Positions 6,077 to 29,093 of a DNA stretch of 64,000 bases are shown here, in pieces. Every line of letters begins with the position of its first letter. Within the stretch, counting starts at the first letter, position 1. Both the position numbers and the translations under genes were made by a program. The notes under the pieces were generated by a model, which worked only from the letters and a program-made list of their open reading frames with translations, was not told where the DNA came from and searched no databases. Source of the DNA: a virus; the IMG/VR virus record IMGVR_UViG_3300042429_001107; one strand, written 5' to 3'.

Positions 6077-6697
6077 ATGAGTCCCCAATTTTTAGTAATA
6101 GCTTATTATACTGAGAGCACACAATATGAAGTCCTAGCTGGTAATCTTGAGAAGACTTTACAAAACTTTAGTATTCCTTTTTATATAGAAGATATAGAGG
6201 ATTTAGGTTCTTGGGAAAAGAATACACATTACAAAGCACATTTTATTAAGAAATGTTTAAATGACAGAAATCAGGATCTTTTATATGTAGATGTTGATGC
6301 ACTCTTTAAACAATACCCAAGTCTTATACCAGATCTCACATGTGATATAGCATATAGAACGCAAGACTTCAGATGGAGAGCAGACGAAGCCCTATCAGGA
6401 ACTATCTTTCTAAAGAATAATGACAAGGTTAAGAGATTTGTTGATCGATGGATCCAACTAAATGAAGCCACACCCGCAGAAAGAATGAAACCTGAAACAT
6501 GGGAGCAAAAAAATATGCAAAGAGCTCATCGAGAAATGACCGAGATCGATTATTTCAATCTACCACCAGAATACACATTCATATTTGATCACATGAAAAC
6601 AATGTATCCAGGAACATCTCCAGTAATAGAGCATTATCAAGAGTCAAGAAATGTTCATAGAAATACGAATCAAAATCGTAATTTCAGGATAAGATAA
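6077..6697 (+). CDS. Nucleotide-diphospho-sugar transferase (GT-A fold)
   Basis: K..FI...L, LLYVDVDA (DxD), LSGTIFL, IEHYQESR. Confidence 0.75.
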   Translation: MSPQFLVIAYYTESTQYEVLAGNLEKTLQNFSIPFYIEDIEDLGSWEKNTHYKAHFIKKCLNDRNQDLLYVDVDALFKQYPSLIPDLTCDIAYRTQDFRWRADEALSGTIFLKNNDKVKRFVDRWIQLNEATPAERMKPETWEQKNMQRAHREMTEIDYFNLPPEYTFIFDHMKTMYPGTSPVIEHYQESRNVHRNTNQNRNFRIR

Positions 6698-6699
6698 GC

Positions 6700-7434
6700 A
6701 TGGAATTAAAATATGCTGTAGTCAGCTCCGATTCAAATCCTGAATATCTTGATTTTTGGCCTTACGTAGCTAAAGCATGGAAAAGAATAGGTATAGAACC
6801 AGTACTACTTTATATTGATAAACAAACTCCACCAGAGAGCGTACATGAACATGGAAAGGTAATATATCTTGAATCAATATCTGAATGGAGTATAGCTCAA
6901 CAAGCACAATGTATAAGATTTTGGGCAGCTAAGATATTAGATGCTCCTTTTATAATATCAGATATTGATATGCTTCCTATTTCTGAAGAATATTATAAAA
7001 ATGGTGTGGCTTCCATTGGAGATAAAGGTATAGTTTCTTACAGCTCTGATATTATTAAATATAGATGGTATGTAACTAATCCACAATACCCTATGTGTTA
7101 TCTTGCAGGAGACACACAAAGCTTTATTGATCTATTAGAAATGAATGATAATTCTCATCAGAATTTTTTAAGAAGATTAATGAAAATGAATATAAGATTT
7201 GGTACAGATCAGAAGTTCTTTTATAATCAATCTGTTAAAAATAAACACATATCTATTAAGCATTTAGAAAGAGGATGGATAGAAGAGAAATATGCTAGAG
7301 GAAGATTGGATAAAGTGATCTGGCCAAAAACAGACTATAATGCAGATGAATATATAGATTGTCATTTACCAAGACCGTTATCCTCAAATATTGGGATTTG
7401 TAAAGAATTATTTAATAAAATTAGAATAGATTAA
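6700..7434 (+). CDS. Putative glycosyltransferase-like protein
   Basis: IISDIDMLP DxD motif, GTDQ, DCHLPRP; operon context. Confidence 0.55.
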   Translation: MELKYAVVSSDSNPEYLDFWPYVAKAWKRIGIEPVLLYIDKQTPPESVHEHGKVIYLESISEWSIAQQAQCIRFWAAKILDAPFIISDIDMLPISEEYYKNGVASIGDKGIVSYSSDIIKYRWYVTNPQYPMCYLAGDTQSFIDLLEMNDNSHQNFLRRLMKMNIRFGTDQKFFYNQSVKNKHISIKHLERGWIEEKYARGRLDKVIWPKTDYNADEYIDCHLPRPLSSNIGICKELFNKIRID

Positions 7435-8244
7435 ATGAAATTATCAATAATACTTCCCACAGGTGGAAATGACCATCTAAGAAATAGAAATTTTAACGAG
7501 TGTCTTACTTGTATTAAAAATCAGACTTTTGTTGATTATGAAGTTATTGTGGTGGAGCAATCATTAGATAATAATTTTTACAAACAAAGTAATCCAATTA
7601 TTTCTTATAAACACATAGGAATTAAAGATCCACATGATAGAGGATTTAATCTTAGCTGGTGTAGAAATGTAGGAGCAAGAGAAGCACAAGGTGATATTAT
7701 AGTCCTGATGGATTCTGATTTTGTTTTTGAAAATAATTATTTCACTATCATTAGTGAATTTAATGGAGAATTTGCTGCTGGAGCGGAAACATATTATTGG
7801 TGTAATACTGAAGATCCCACTACCGATTGGATAAGAACAAAAGACTTTAATGTTTTTAAAAAAAGAGGTGGTGGCCCTAGAGACCCTGTATTTCAATTTA
7901 GATCTATGTCTAGAGGATGTGGGTACGGAGCTATACTAGTTTATAATAAAGAATGGTTCTGGAATACTATGGGAGGATACAACGAAAACTTCTTTAGATA
8001 TGGCTGGGAAGATAAAGCAACAACGGAAATGATTAAATCATTGCTTGATAGGGATGATGAGAGTATGTTAAGAATTCCTTCAGAAGCAGCACATCTTAAT
8101 CATAGATCTAAAGATGTTAGGAATATGAATATAAATGAAGCACTTTTTAATAAATTTACTAGAATGGATCAATTAGAGCTTTCAAAAACAATAAAAGAAT
8201 CATTTGTTGGCAAAAGATCAGAGCCTACTTTATTAAATATTTAA
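7435..8244 (+). CDS. GT2/GT7-like glycosyltransferase (galactosyltransferase-like)
   Basis: LSIILP, VIVVEQ, FNLSWCRNVG, MDSD, GGYNENFFRYGWED. Confidence 0.85.
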   Translation: MKLSIILPTGGNDHLRNRNFNECLTCIKNQTFVDYEVIVVEQSLDNNFYKQSNPIISYKHIGIKDPHDRGFNLSWCRNVGAREAQGDIIVLMDSDFVFENNYFTIISEFNGEFAAGAETYYWCNTEDPTTDWIRTKDFNVFKKRGGGPRDPVFQFRSMSRGCGYGAILVYNKEWFWNTMGGYNENFFRYGWEDKATTEMIKSLLDRDDESMLRIPSEAAHLNHRSKDVRNMNINEALFNKFTRMDQLELSKTIKESFVGKRSEPTLLNI

Positions 8245-8247
8245 TTC

Positions 8248-26978: not shown

Positions 26979-27756
26979 ATATAATAAGATTCTTATAGCA
27001 GGTCCTTGCGTAATTCAAAGTTGGGACACTTGTTATGAGGTAGCTATTGAAATTAAAAGATGTGCACTTCTGTATAATTTTACACCTATCTTCAAAGCAA
27101 GTTTTGATAAAGCTAATAGAACTTCGTCTAATGGATTTAGAGGCGTTGGTATAGATAAAGGATTAGATATACTATCTAAGATCAAACAGAGGCTAGATAT
27201 ACCTGTTATAACGGATGTACACGAAACTGAACAAGTTGAGCAAGTAGCATCAGTTGTGGATTACTTACAAGTTCCTGCTTTTTTGTCTAGACAGACAGAT
27301 CTTATTGAAGCATGTGCTAAAACAGGATTACCTGTGTTAGTTAAAAAAGGACAATTTCTTTCTCCTGAAAGTTGTAAATTCATTGAGGATAAATTTTACA
27401 AAGCTGGGGGTACACAATTACTAATAGGTGAAAGGGGTAACAGCTTTGGGTATAATGATTTGATAGTTGATGTCACATCAATTTCTAGATTAAAAAAATC
27501 CTGCGAAAATTCAAAGATTATAATGGATTGCACACACAGTCTGCAAAGACCCAATGGAATTTACGGAAAGACAGAAGGGAGAGGTGATATGATCGAAGAG
27601 ATGGTAAAATATGCTTCAGTAATGAATGCTGATGGAATATTTATAGAAACACATCCATACCCAGAACTCTCCCCGTCGGATTCTGAAAATATGTTAGAAC
27701 TTAGTAAATTTGAAAATATAATAAAAAAATCAAGATCGATATATGATACCCACTAA
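26968..27756 (+). CDS. kdsA: 3-deoxy-D-manno-octulosonate 8-phosphate synthase, metal-dependent type
   Basis: IAGPCVI, FKASFDKANRTS, PAFLSRQTDL, KKGQF, ERG..FGY, DCTHSLQ. Confidence 0.93.
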   Translation: MEIKYNKILIAGPCVIQSWDTCYEVAIEIKRCALLYNFTPIFKASFDKANRTSSNGFRGVGIDKGLDILSKIKQRLDIPVITDVHETEQVEQVASVVDYLQVPAFLSRQTDLIEACAKTGLPVLVKKGQFLSPESCKFIEDKFYKAGGTQLLIGERGNSFGYNDLIVDVTSISRLKKSCENSKIIMDCTHSLQRPNGIYGKTEGRGDMIEEMVKYASVMNADGIFIETHPYPELSPSDSENMLELSKFENIIKKSRSIYDTH

Positions 27757-28459
27757 ATTAATGGATATAGTGATTGTTAGCTATGCTAAAGATGACTACT
27801 GTAAGGGTTTAACTGAAAATTGTATAAAGTCAATTCTAGAGTCAGAAAATTATTCTGAGAAGCTATTTAATATAATTGTTGTTGAATCTGAACCTGGTGT
27901 AAAATGGGAACATCTATCCGATATAGTTCACACATTTGAAGCTCCTTTACCTTATGGTTATCACAAATTTCTTAACTTTGGTAGAAAGCAGGGAAATTCA
28001 CAATTCGTTGCTCTCTGTAATAATGATTTAGAATTTAAAGAAAAATGGTTTACTAATATAATGAAAGCATCTGTTATGGAATCTGATGTCATATCATTTT
28101 CTCCTATATGTCCGATGACTCAGACAATTTACGAGATATACGAGCACTCAGGAAATATTGAAGGATACGAAATAAGAAAACATATATCTGGATGGTGTAT
28201 AATACACAAGAGGGAAATTTATAATATAATTGGGGATCTTGATGAAAGATTTCATCATTGGTTCTGTGATAATGATTATTCAATGGAGCTTCAATATCAT
28301 GGACTTAAACACATGCTTGTCACTGATTCAATTGTGATACATCACGATAAAAATATAGGAAAAACCACAGAAAGAGTTATAACTGATAGAAATCAGATGT
28401 ATGATATGACTAGTGGTTCTTTGCCTATCTTTCAAGAAAAATGGAGAAATAAAATATAA
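27743..28459 (+). CDS. GT2 glycosyltransferase
   Basis: IVIVS, LNFG, CNND, IGDLDERF..WFCDND. Confidence 0.85.
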   Translation: MIPTKLMDIVIVSYAKDDYCKGLTENCIKSILESENYSEKLFNIIVVESEPGVKWEHLSDIVHTFEAPLPYGYHKFLNFGRKQGNSQFVALCNNDLEFKEKWFTNIMKASVMESDVISFSPICPMTQTIYEIYEHSGNIEGYEIRKHISGWCIIHKREIYNIIGDLDERFHHWFCDNDYSMELQYHGLKHMLVTDSIVIHHDKNIGKTTERVITDRNQMYDMTSGSLPIFQEKWRNKI

Positions 28460-28469
28460 AATATAAAAT

Positions 28470-29093
28470 ATGAAAAGATATGAAATGATCAACCGTGTTA
28501 TCGAATCAAAAGGATACACGAATTATTTAGAAATAGGAGTGAGAGACGGTGAATGCTTCAAAGAGATTTGCTGTAAGAATAAAACCGGGGTGGATCCTAA
28601 TCCCACTAGTGATCATACAACACATATAATGACTTCTGACGATTTCTTTTATGAATTAGACGAGAATTCTATGTTTGATGTGATATTCATTGATGGGTTA
28701 CACTTAGATCATCAAGTAAATAAAGATATTGAAAATTCATTAAAGCATTTAAAAGAAGGTGGAACTATACTTCTTCATGATTGTAATCCACCAACTAAAT
28801 ATCATGCTGCAGAATCTCCTGTTTATTCTGCACCTGCTAACGGTGATTGGAATGGTACTGTGTATCTTTCCTTGATTAATTTAAGATTATACAGAAATAA
28901 TTTGAGATTAAGAACGGTGGATTCTGATTGGGGAGTTGGCTTATTAACAAAAGAGACGAGCGAGACTTTAAATGCTTTTCCTAATGATGCTATGTCATGG
29001 GAATTCTTTTATGAAAACCGACAAGAAATACTCGATTTAGTTACAGTTGATGAATTTATTAATCTTTATCCTGTCAATCTTCTAGTTGACTAA
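28470..29093 (+). CDS. Class I SAM methyltransferase (Methyltransf_24-like)
   Basis: YLEIGV, GVDP, TSDDFF, FIDGLH, LHDC. Confidence 0.88.
   Translation: MKRYEMINRVIESKGYTNYLEIGVRDGECFKEICCKNKTGVDPNPTSDHTTHIMTSDDFFYELDENSMFDVIFIDGLHLDHQVNKDIENSLKHLKEGGTILLHDCNPPTKYHAAESPVYSAPANGDWNGTVYLSLINLRLYRNNLRLRTVDSDWGVGLLTKETSETLNAFPNDAMSWEFFYENRQEILDLVTVDEFINLYPVNLLVD

Follow-up and report, generated by a model that had tools for sequence, protein, structure and literature searches.

The stretch of DNA analysed here (the window, 64,000 nucleotides of the IMG/VR virus record IMGVR_UViG_3300042429_001107) corresponds to G000:C1:24162-88161 of a 123.8-kb viral contig with 32% G+C, which has collagen-like repeats at both contig breaks, and contains at positions 6077-29093 a dense block of glycan-synthesis genes, hereafter the glycan island. 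The island comprises 28 open reading frames (ORFs), rather than the 26 genes counted in a preliminary description made from the sequence alone, and is 99.6% coding, with summed gaps of ~100 nt. Twenty-five ORFs lie on the plus strand, as do the virion genes on both flanks, and three on the minus strand form an inverted sub-operon (20180-23039), the largest gap being the divergent region of 51 nt next to it (23040-23090). The block is thus as tightly packed as had been described, being near gap-free and co-directional apart from this three-gene inversion. Using Pfam, NCBIfam, PHROGs and Atlas for family assignment, together with one fold, 12 ORFs were classified as glycosyltransferase-like, 12 as sugar-nucleotide or tailoring enzymes and three as methyltransferases, with one ORF (17491) having no family. 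Family searches thereby recovered the 12 or so glycosyltransferase-like genes reported initially, including GT2/GT7-like, GT10, GT11, GT25 and two MptE/Maf-like members, as well as the nucleotide-sugar enzymes and three methyltransferases (FkbM, a weak Methyltransf_25 and Methyltransf_24), the GT29 assignment being weak. This block is best explained as a self-sufficient, cytoplasmic glycan factory that occupies a constant site among the virion genes of an uncultured, T4-related freshwater jumbo phage.

The 12 transferases are all encoded on the plus strand. The first gene (6077-6697, conserved in 19 related loci) encodes a predicted GT-A glycosyltransferase with a DVD motif, PF03407/GT34-like, which has no Pfam match; its Atlas neighbours are PF03407/PF05637 clusters, mostly from phages, and YVDVDA is invariant. 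A homologue with 42% identity accompanies KdsA and KdsD in LR756500.1, a 462-kb uncultured phage. The second gene (6700-7434, 21 loci) encodes a 244-aa member of a phage-only family with an invariant SDMDMLP motif and a retaining GT-A fold, whose AF2 model reached a pLDDT of 94.5 with a 29-sequence alignment, used in place of an input of 5 sequences that gave an unusable pLDDT of 49. A Foldseek search with this model retrieved GT6, GT8, UGGT and LARGE1 at E ~1e-6, and also giant-virus and cyanophage glycosyltransferases; PDB profile searches with both left-edge proteins gave nothing usable. Next come a GT2 enzyme with a Glyco_transf_7C-like tail (7435-8244; PF00535 E 1.4e-9, PF02709 E 6.5e-4; semi-conserved, 8 loci) and a GT7-like, beta-1,4-galactosyltransferase-like protein (8248-9420; PF13733 and PF02709 below gathering score, PDB beta4GalT1 E 1.4e-5). 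Further inside lie members of GT11, the alpha-1,2-fucosyl/colitosyl-transferase family (10317-11057; PF01531 E 1.2e-27), of GT25, the lipopolysaccharide (LPS) beta-1,4-galactosyltransferase family (11927-12544; PF01755 E 5.5e-19), and of GT10, the alpha-1,3-fucosyltransferase family (13486-14289; PF00852 E 1.4e-9, its cluster present in 22 loci), along with a weak GT2-like protein (12546-13484; PF00535 E 1e-3, below cut-off, no PHROG match). The gene group 16657-20194 begins with an MptE/CST-I-like protein (start 16657; PF01973 32.7 bits, below the gathering score of 34.6), followed by the 351-aa protein without family assignment (start 17491), an MptE/Maf-like protein (start 18543; PF01973 36.2 bits, above that score) and a GT29-like protein (start 19418; PF00777 24.9 bits vs 23). 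A PF06002 match (E 3.7e-5) also falls within this group, whose PDB matches are limited to weak ones to Cst-II, the MptE-like proteins having no informative match, and its genes are presumed to encode transferases for sugars activated with cytidine monophosphate (CMP). Near the right edge stands a conserved GT2-like gene (27743-28459, 22 loci; PF00535 E 1.7e-3, phrog_22332 glycosyltransferase E 1.7e-14).

The sugar-nucleotide genes point to a 6-deoxyhexose and to Kdo (3-deoxy-D-manno-octulosonate). Gmd, the GDP-mannose 4,6-dehydratase (24907-25914, +; TIGR01472 495 bits vs cut-off 415; 23 loci), is the first right-edge gene and is preceded by a ColD-type GDP-4-keto-6-deoxymannose 3-dehydratase of DegT fold (23741-24910, +), with E. 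coli ColD/WbdK 2GMS as best PDB match (E 7e-49). The latter protein has His at the position occupied by the pyridoxal-phosphate-binding lysine of sugar aminotransferases, aligned to ColD His188, within a stretch of 10 residues that aligns to SHHIATMEGG of 2GMS and in which the H188N entry 3B8X has Asn. The third member is an Fcl/ColC-like GDP-4-keto-6-deoxyhexose epimerase/reductase (9413-10330, +; PF01370 E 7e-35, NF047922 E 6e-52), which scores 177 bits against the NF047922 GDP-L-fucose synthase model (cut-off 500), ColC and Fcl being indistinguishable here. Together, Gmd, the ColD-type dehydratase and this reductase would give GDP-colitose, and relatives lacking ColD, which retain Gmd and the reductase, would make GDP-fucose; GT11 and GT10 are the transferase families that match such a branch. 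A short nucleoside-diphosphate (NDP)-sugar 6-dehydrogenase (11062-11925, +; TIGR03026 212.8 bits vs cut-off 189.8) is also encoded. The TIGR03026 match to this protein stops at model position 299 of 413, so that the NAD-binding loop (GxGxxG) and the catalytic GGHCFPKD are kept and the whole C-terminal nucleotide-sugar-binding domain is missing.

For Kdo, a KdsD/KpsF-type arabinose-5-phosphate isomerase (25914-26501, +; TIGR00393 E 7e-42, NF008141 E 7e-38 for the SIS half; 23 loci), consisting of the SIS domain only without CBS domains, and KdsA, Kdo-8-phosphate synthase (26968-27756, +; NF003543 309 bits vs cut-off 242; conserved in 24 loci), would give Kdo-8-phosphate. No KdsC phosphatase was found, and the single CTP_transf_3 protein of the island (21921-23039) lies in the variable part; host enzymes could supply the KdsC and KdsB steps. 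Deposited phage genomes rarely carry Kdo genes: KdsA searches matched 12 records, of which only a few resemble true KdsA. A KpsC/KpsS-like Kdo transferase was sought in the window with the LR756500.1 protein and was undetectable by BLASTP or phmmer. The heptose helpers are a GmhA-like SIS-domain isomerase, sedoheptulose-7-phosphate isomerase-like (16049-16657, +; TIGR00441 E 1.6e-17, 64 bits vs 209; SIS_2 weak), and a small nucleotidyltransferase resembling either RfaE domain II (heptose-1-phosphate adenylyltransferase) or TagD (26520-26978, +; 3 loci only; TIGR02199 E 2e-19 and TIGR01518 E 1.2e-17, both below cut-off), each distant from its models. Tailoring is represented by the FkbM methyltransferase (20180-20779, -; PF05050 E 5.5e-6), a weak class I S-adenosylmethionine (SAM) methyltransferase (23091-23744, +; PF13649 E 2.7e-4; TIGR03587, a Pse-associated methylase, E 7.5e-7, below cut-off) and the right-edge Methyltransf_24 SAM methyltransferase (28470-29093, +; PF13578 E 8.7e-11; conserved in 22 loci). 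The chemistry expected at the outset, a complex, methylated and acidic glycan, agrees with this set, in which an acidic sugar (Kdo), deoxy sugars and methyltransferases are encoded.

Homologues of the flanking virion proteins (45-100% identity) occur in about 30 IMG/VR contigs, and in these related phages the island occupies the same site within the virion-gene block. The synteny comparison proposed in the preliminary description revealed a fixed site, with ends that are conserved and a middle that is hypervariable. In four long relatives the RimK-type gene and a 607-aa gene stand on either side of the island, which spans 12-16 kb (first gene to methyltransferase). The left end retains 6077, 6700 and often 7435; the right end retains Gmd, KdsD, KdsA, the GT2-like gene, Methyltransf_24 and two proteins of 86 aa and 208 aa (29131-29971, +; no Pfam or PHROG match; 27 and 29 loci), whose genes close the island unit just past the right border set earlier at 29093. 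The middles of the four long relatives share almost nothing, their 48 proteins including six FkbM methyltransferases, members of GT6, GT10, GT11, GT17, GT25 and DUF5672, as well as WbqC, KAS-III, PhyH, DegT, an acetyltransferase and a pyruvyl transferase. Clustering of the 331 interior ORFs from 50 loci gave 91 clusters, of which 33 have a single member. In LR756500.1 (23% G+C) an analogous Kdo-centred island (L154, 111118-151855) encodes DegT, GT29, a 6077-family domain fused to GT4, a KpsC/KpsS-family (PF05159) protein, a methyltransferase, GT2+7C, a pyruvyl transferase, KdsA, KdsB and KdsD. The profile of the conserved 244-aa family matched 428 protein clusters (90% identity), the best 120 being mostly 64-94% identical to the query, and the clade is very abundant in lake metagenomes. 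In some relatives (L034:5110-5772 in G003, also L059 and L065) the start of the first island gene appears duplicated, and an extra gene, HNH-endonuclease-like by eye, lies between the non-coding block at the island head and the 6077 homologue.

The sharpest case of turnover concerns a separate CMP-sugar branch in the variable part. Its members are a FabG-like short-chain dehydrogenase/reductase (SDR) and an AroB-related sugar-phosphate cyclase (14286-16041, +; PF13561 E 2.5e-50; PF01761/PF24621; TIGR04425 376.8 bits vs cut-off 400), the SIS protein, and the products of the inverted sub-operon, namely a class-III aminotransferase (20776-21924, -; PF00202 E 1e-59), a cytidylyltransferase (CTP_transf_3) fused to a cupin (21921-23039, -; PF02348 E 1.4e-28 and PF07883) and the FkbM methyltransferase; sialyltransferase-like and Maf-like proteins flank the branch. 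PseF and KdsB models match the cytidylyltransferase below their cut-offs, and it is missing from most relatives. In bacterial loci, the SDR gene stands immediately upstream of the AroB-related gene in 75 of 80 cases, with a CTP_transf_3 gene nearby in 37 of the 80, mostly in Bacteroidota; the pair is a cassette of bacterial origin. Hundreds of bacterial species (522 confirmed matches), mostly Bacteroidota, Verrucomicrobiota and Desulfobacterota, carry an SDR followed by a TIGR04425-family cyclase as a fixed pair of genes, often with a CMP-sugar-type cytidylyltransferase nearby; a literature search on the SDR/AroB/cytidylyltransferase cassette found no paper on it or on its product. Among the ~30 relatives the AroB-related branch is confined to this phage. 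A sibling contig with 96-97% DNA identity (IMGVR_UViG_3300032331_002637) lacks 14287-16024, that is the SDR and AroB-related pair, and also 17492-19302 (~1.8 kb, the 351-aa protein and part of the Maf-like gene), so that turnover takes place at strain level. Between the window and this sibling the aminotransferase and cytidylyltransferase are 79-84% identical and the flanking genes 98-100%. The cassette resembles cyclitol-type natural-product chemistry and is widespread in bacteria, which favours a quite improbable alternative, in which the island product is an oligosaccharide that is free or linked to a small molecule, such as a glycosylated cyclitol or metabolite from the AroB-related branch, serving as a decoy, osmolyte, signal or inhibitor during infection; no feature of the locus links the product to a macromolecule. 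However, a branch unique among the relatives and missing in a near-identical sibling cannot account for a conserved island, and the presence of twelve transferases implies that the product is a polymer, or else a large oligosaccharide, built on a defined acceptor.

The regulation of the island was addressed by comparing promoter motifs in the clade, in which RATATATA is the late motif. Of its 84 copies in the relative G001, 59 are found no more than 60 nt upstream of a start on the same strand (against ~4% by a crude estimate of chance and 9-16% for four control octamers), and the motif is kept at orthologous sites, including the head of the protease-capsid operon. Within the 100 nt before the first island gene it was found in none of 20 heads, and the TATATA at 6061-6066 follows TT and lacks conservation. 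In contrast, AATATATA stands ahead of the inverted sub-operon (minus strand, 23057-23064), 25 nt from the ATG at 23039. Of the proposal that TATATA motifs head both units, the part concerning the sub-operon therefore stands, and the part concerning the main operon does not; because the main operon is without RATATATA, the argument for its late co-regulation with the baseplate genes is unsupported. A late promoter, GATATATA (29903-29910), lies within the 3' end of the conserved 208-aa gene and is conserved 14-19 nt before the start of the NUDIX hydrolase gene (29922-30485, +; PF00293 E 1.3e-6) in all five genomes, with AAAAGATATATATAA invariant in four of the five. Therefore, 29903 marks the start of the late unit that this gene heads, leading into the baseplate genes, and the island unit extends over 6077-29971.

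The main operon is headed by a conserved non-coding block of 60 nt (5998-6057, +; TGAAACT ... GGACTAAAATTTTTAC-N3-GTAAATCCCRGGCTATGAAT), found in 17 relatives and common to all intact heads, which contains a short inverted repeat, TTTAC-N3-GTAAA, and a TATGAATA box, and of which no other copy was found in G000 or G001. It matches neither of the promoter classes, late (RATATATA) or early (AATCATTTTT...TAnnTTTG); it is presumed to be the promoter or operator of the main operon, and may be an operator or a middle-type promoter. The inverted repeat is preserved by paired changes in one relative (TTTAT..ATAAA in L051). An RNA element in this block was considered and rejected, as Rfam returned a single noise match (E 0.78) and RNAalifold on 5 and 13 sequences predicted no pairs; likewise a T4-type TATAAATA late box at the island head was discarded, since neither TATAAATA nor TATGAATA shows enrichment upstream of genes or conservation at G001 orthologous sites. 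In scans of the 5-39 kb region, sigma-70-type promoters and intrinsic terminators were no more frequent than expected from shuffled sequence, which is uninformative on operon limits. The early class was defined in the 144-234 kb region of G001, where AATCATTTTTT...TTGTAGAAA...TAnnTTTG precedes ~45 small genes by ~55-65 nt; the consensus in G001:C1:144046-233763 (L044-L049) reads GGAATCATTTTTT..TTGTAGAAAATTCTATATTTG/TAGCTA, with GGAACCCC-containing elements often just upstream. The TAnnTTTG element matches the Bacteroidota -7 box, and because of this match the host of the clade is probably a member of the Bacteroidota, with which the mostly Bacteroidota affinity of the AroB cassette agrees. The analysis in three promoter classes removes the argument that the island belongs to a late regulon.

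No export machinery accompanies the island. A Kyte-Doolittle scan found no credible transmembrane segment in any island protein, the sole flag being a borderline hydrophobic window in the GmhA-like protein at 16049 (score 1.65 vs threshold 1.6), and the same method found no multipass membrane protein in the 123.8-kb contig, which bears out the initial impression that the island proteins are soluble. In G001 (248 kb, 85% complete) no protein has more than 4 hydrophobic segments, and none of at least 300 aa has more than 2. Profile searches covered this contig and four relatives (G000-G004), all incomplete records, the best relative being 85% complete. In these five, PF01943 (Polysacc_synt, Wzx), PF04932 (Wzy_C, Wzy/WaaL) and the initiating transferases PF02397 (Bac_transf) and PF00953 (Glycos_transf_4) were absent, and PF00005 (ABC_tran) gave only sub-threshold P-loop matches in 568-572-aa frames, with control genomes positive in each search. 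As far as incomplete records allow, the claimed lack of a flippase, polymerase, ABC exporter and initiating transferase thus extends to the five genomes, where no Wzx, Wzy or ABC genes were found elsewhere either. These results support the island being a self-contained, membrane-free cytoplasmic system for glycan building.

The surroundings of the island are those of a virion module. Prohead protease and Gp23-type capsid genes lie at window -9518 to -5755, ~12 kb before the island, and are followed by an asparagine-synthase-like gene and a RimK module, with baseplate-type genes 3' of the island; megablast of the virion region against GenBank phages gave no match. The 470-aa asparagine-synthase-like protein (GATase_7 and Asn_synthase; window 1-976, +; G000:C1:23725-25137) stands between the head genes and the RimK module, in which (971-3199, -) a 498-aa RimK-type ATP-grasp ligase fused to a Zn_protease/retropepsin-like domain adjoins a 218-aa protein made almost wholly of Asp/Glu/Ser repeats (ESDEEE...). 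This acidic protein is highly divergent among relatives, the neighbouring ligase being ~90% conserved.

The glycan most likely decorates the fibre proteins of the phage itself, a reading to which we give a probability of roughly 0.5. In its favour count the gene content with its soluble products, the lack of export and initiation families in the five genomes, the location of the island between protease/Gp23 and baseplate genes with no terminator signal above chance, the one MptE/Maf-family protein above gathering score (18543) and the layout of conserved ends with a hypervariable middle, which is that of the validated fibril clusters of Megavirinae (PMC10117803). A TibC/Aah-type protein of 1113 aa is encoded at G000:C1:3686-7027, ~23 kb upstream of the island; its C-terminal 360 residues score 307.2 bits against TIGR04414 (cut-off 200, model positions 15-372 of 374), the domain is fused to a GT4 domain, G001 has an orthologue with 65% identity, and the gene adjoins a gene for a Gly-Ser/Thr collagen-like fibre. 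Members of the TibC/Aah family O-heptosylate Ser of folded proteins in the cytoplasm, from ADP-heptose, and those of the MptE/Maf family glycosylate flagellin with CMP-sugars. The ADP-heptose helpers of the island would feed the TibC/Aah-type enzyme, and mucin-like Ser/Thr tracts occur in three proteins of the structural block (the collagen-like Gly-Ser-Ser/Thr protein, a 648-aa protein and a 781-aa protein with a Thr run). The likeness to the known heptosyltransferases lies in TIGR04414 membership and in the GmhA-like and RfaE-II-like genes of the island; the phage enzyme differs in being GT4-fused, in lying outside the island and in that it would act on a collagen-like fibre rather than on an autotransporter. 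We know of no extension of a heptose primer by further transferases in this family.

In the mechanism proposed for fibre glycosylation, the conserved edge genes (the three left transferases and, on the right, Gmd, KdsD, KdsA, the transferase and the methyltransferase) would build a common inner part containing Kdo and a 6-deoxyhexose, and the swappable middle genes a strain-specific outer part. The chain would be assembled sugar by sugar on Ser/Thr-rich virion fibre proteins in the cytoplasm, the first sugar possibly coming from the TibC/Aah-type O-heptosyltransferase, and the outcome would be 'serotypes' among phages, with a parallel in the fibril glycans of Megavirinae, which are clade-specific. 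In this full form, with an exporter-free factory coating Ser/Thr-rich fibres with a methylated Kdo/colitose heteroglycan whose outer part is swapped between strains like an O-antigen to give 'serotypes', the proposal is more tentative than fibre decoration as such.

Several observations weigh against a fibre target. No sequence feature indicates the acceptor. The main operon lacks the RATATATA that heads the capsid and baseplate units (0 of 20 heads), the TibC-type gene is ~23 kb away and outside the island, and the heptose helper genes are missing from most relatives. The Gp23 capsid homologue has no Ser/Thr-rich C-terminal tail of the mycobacteriophage kind; a C-terminus rich in Gly, Ser and Thr is found only in a baseplate-like protein (37474-38412), Ser/Thr tracts otherwise occurring in fibre-like proteins. 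GT10, GT11, GT25 and sialyltransferase-like enzymes, Kdo, heptose and colitose make up the toolkit of lipooligosaccharide (LOS) and O-antigen assembly, which takes place at the cytoplasmic face on lipid A-core or undecaprenyl carriers, with export by host MsbA/Lpt, Wzx or a ligase. The transferase families and sugars of the island are thus those of LPS, LOS and O-antigen synthesis and would need host export only. Hence, the initial step from the lack of an exporter to virion proteins is unsound, because host machinery could export the product; of the first interpretation, a membrane-free glycan system within the virion block remains, without this step and without co-regulation.

These same building blocks lead to the main rival explanation, which we regard as unlikely: remodelling of the host envelope, in which the soluble transferases of the phage add sugars at the cytoplasmic face to lipid-linked acceptors of the host (lipid A-core, O-antigen or capsule on undecaprenyl, or the general protein O-glycan of Bacteroidota) and host MsbA/Lpt, flippase and ligase export the altered glycan. 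Its effects could be a receptor change (superinfection exclusion, less progeny loss on debris) or altered grazer recognition. Because this route needs no phage exporter, the absence of one is no argument against it, and an island head without the late motif suits it as well. In LR756500.1 the same Kdo genes occur together with one for a KpsC/KpsS-family (PF05159) enzyme, a family that acts on a lipid acceptor in bacteria, and the early promoters suggest a Gram-negative Bacteroidota host with Kdo-containing LPS. Gene sets of this sort in large cyanomyoviruses have been interpreted in the same sense, those of the cultured cyanophage S-SCSM2R standing among auxiliary metabolic genes and being read as host-surface modifiers (PMC12801897). 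However, the island lies within the virion-gene block and not in the early or auxiliary region usual for host-directed genes of T4-like phages, and it lacks the early promoter class of the phage. Within a single lytic cycle, the making, export and display of a new, complex glycan would be slow, and a putative TibC/Aah-type protein O-glycosyltransferase is encoded together with Ser/Thr-rich fibres.

Hypermodification of DNA, with mono- to oligosaccharides (Kdo and heptose included) placed on hydroxymethylated bases for restriction evasion, is very improbable. It has a precedent in phage transferases that put Kdo, heptose, uronic acids and di- or trisaccharides on 5hmC (Pyle et al., bioRxiv 10.1101/2023.12.21.572611), LPS-related enzymes using the same sugars as expected here; the phage is T4-related (Gp23), a non-late promoter would suit a replication-phase function, and a thymidylate-synthase-family gene (PF00303), a possible hydroxymethylase, lies at the far end of the relative G002. 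That gene, however, lies at a distance of >100 kb from the island, and the 85%-complete relative has none. The clusters of Pyle et al. differ in carrying an adjacent C5-methyltransferase and a 5-methylpyrimidine dioxygenase with one to three transferases, and neither marker was found here: C5-cytosine methyltransferase (PF00145) is absent from the five genomes with positive controls, and Tet/JBP (PF12851) had no match in the phage genomes, the control genomes likewise giving none. No GT-B enzyme like the alpha- or beta-GT of T4 occurs among the Pfam matches of island proteins, and twelve transferases, fucosyl/colitosyl enzymes and strain-level cassette swapping far exceed any known DNA glycan. 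DNA glycosylation is thus unlikely because there is no C5-methyltransferase, no adjacent hydroxymethylase and too many transferases.

Fibre glycosylation and envelope remodelling each have counterparts in known systems. The cyanomyoviruses P-SSM2, S-SCSM1 and S-SCSM2R (PMC12801897), likewise large-genome T4-related aquatic phages, carry gene sets labelled 'LPS' or 'cell wall synthesis and modification' with many soluble GT2, GT10, GT11 and GT25 enzymes, an NDP-sugar dehydrogenase, epimerases and a TagD-like cytidylyltransferase, and without exporters; KdsA is accompanied there by KdsB, and function is predicted from genes in both systems. In S-SCSM2R the genes are dispersed in several patches among psbA, psbD, hli, pstS and other auxiliary genes, whereas here they form one 99.6%-coding block at a fixed virion-module site between head and baseplate modules, with conserved ends, a swappable middle and, in addition, the ColD-type colitose and AroB-related branches. 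The fibril clusters of Megavirinae (PMC10117803), with 6-33 genes, share nucleotide-sugar pathways, glycosyltransferases, methyl- and pyruvyl-transferases, conserved flanking genes, clade-specific content, bacterial-type rare sugars and the lack of membrane export steps. Their glycans have been chemically demonstrated, but they belong to eukaryotic viruses with an unrelated virion and contain viosamine, bacillosamine and quinovosamine, whereas the phage island, known from its genes alone, would provide colitose or fucose and Kdo. In mycobacteriophages, glycosyltransferases encoded in the structural region, as are those of the island, glycosylate virion proteins in the cytoplasm (Freeman et al. 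2023, as summarized in passages of PMC12619734 and PMC12801897). According to these passages, few transferases use host nucleotide sugars and place glycans on C-terminal tails of capsid and tail-tube proteins; here, in contrast, 12 transferases come with their own sugar pathways, the candidate acceptors are fibres and the capsid lacks such a tail. Bacterial O-antigen and LOS loci share the conserved flanks and hypervariable middle, and the predicted GDP-colitose pathway is that of E. coli O55 and O111; GT10, GT11 and GT25 recur in Helicobacter and Neisseria LOS, and the MptE/Maf-like proteins beside candidate CMP-sugar genes may resemble Maf-type flagellin islands. Unlike these bacterial loci, the island has no initiating transferase, Wzx, Wzy, WaaL, ABC transporter or flagellin and lies in a phage virion module.

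A locus of this kind is already known from large cyanomyoviruses, and the swappable sugar-chain island described here is a variant of it. Glycan gene sets of large aquatic phages have been known since the first cyanomyovirus genomes and, to our knowledge, the target of glycosylation has never been tested. To these sets the window adds the largest version (28 genes), a ColD checked by its diagnostic His, the TibC-type link, a bacterial SDR/AroB cassette caught in strain-level gain or loss and the three-class promoter analysis; it also supplies soluble enzymes of GT6/7/10/11/25/29 type and a phage ColD. The clade offers an unusually clean case, with a compact operon, a virion-module site, conserved ends and a variable middle, a TibC/Aah-type gene and mucin-like fibres. 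If the target is the virion, particles would bear variable glycan coats, with a bearing on adsorption, grazing, aggregation and immune or lectin recognition, and the way in which phage 'strains' are defined would be affected; a fibre coat that defines 'serotypes' would be the bacteriophage counterpart of Megavirinae fibril glycosylation. If the target is instead the host envelope, no larger programme of a lytic phage for rewriting host surface glycans would be known. Either outcome would settle a question that has been open for about twenty years.

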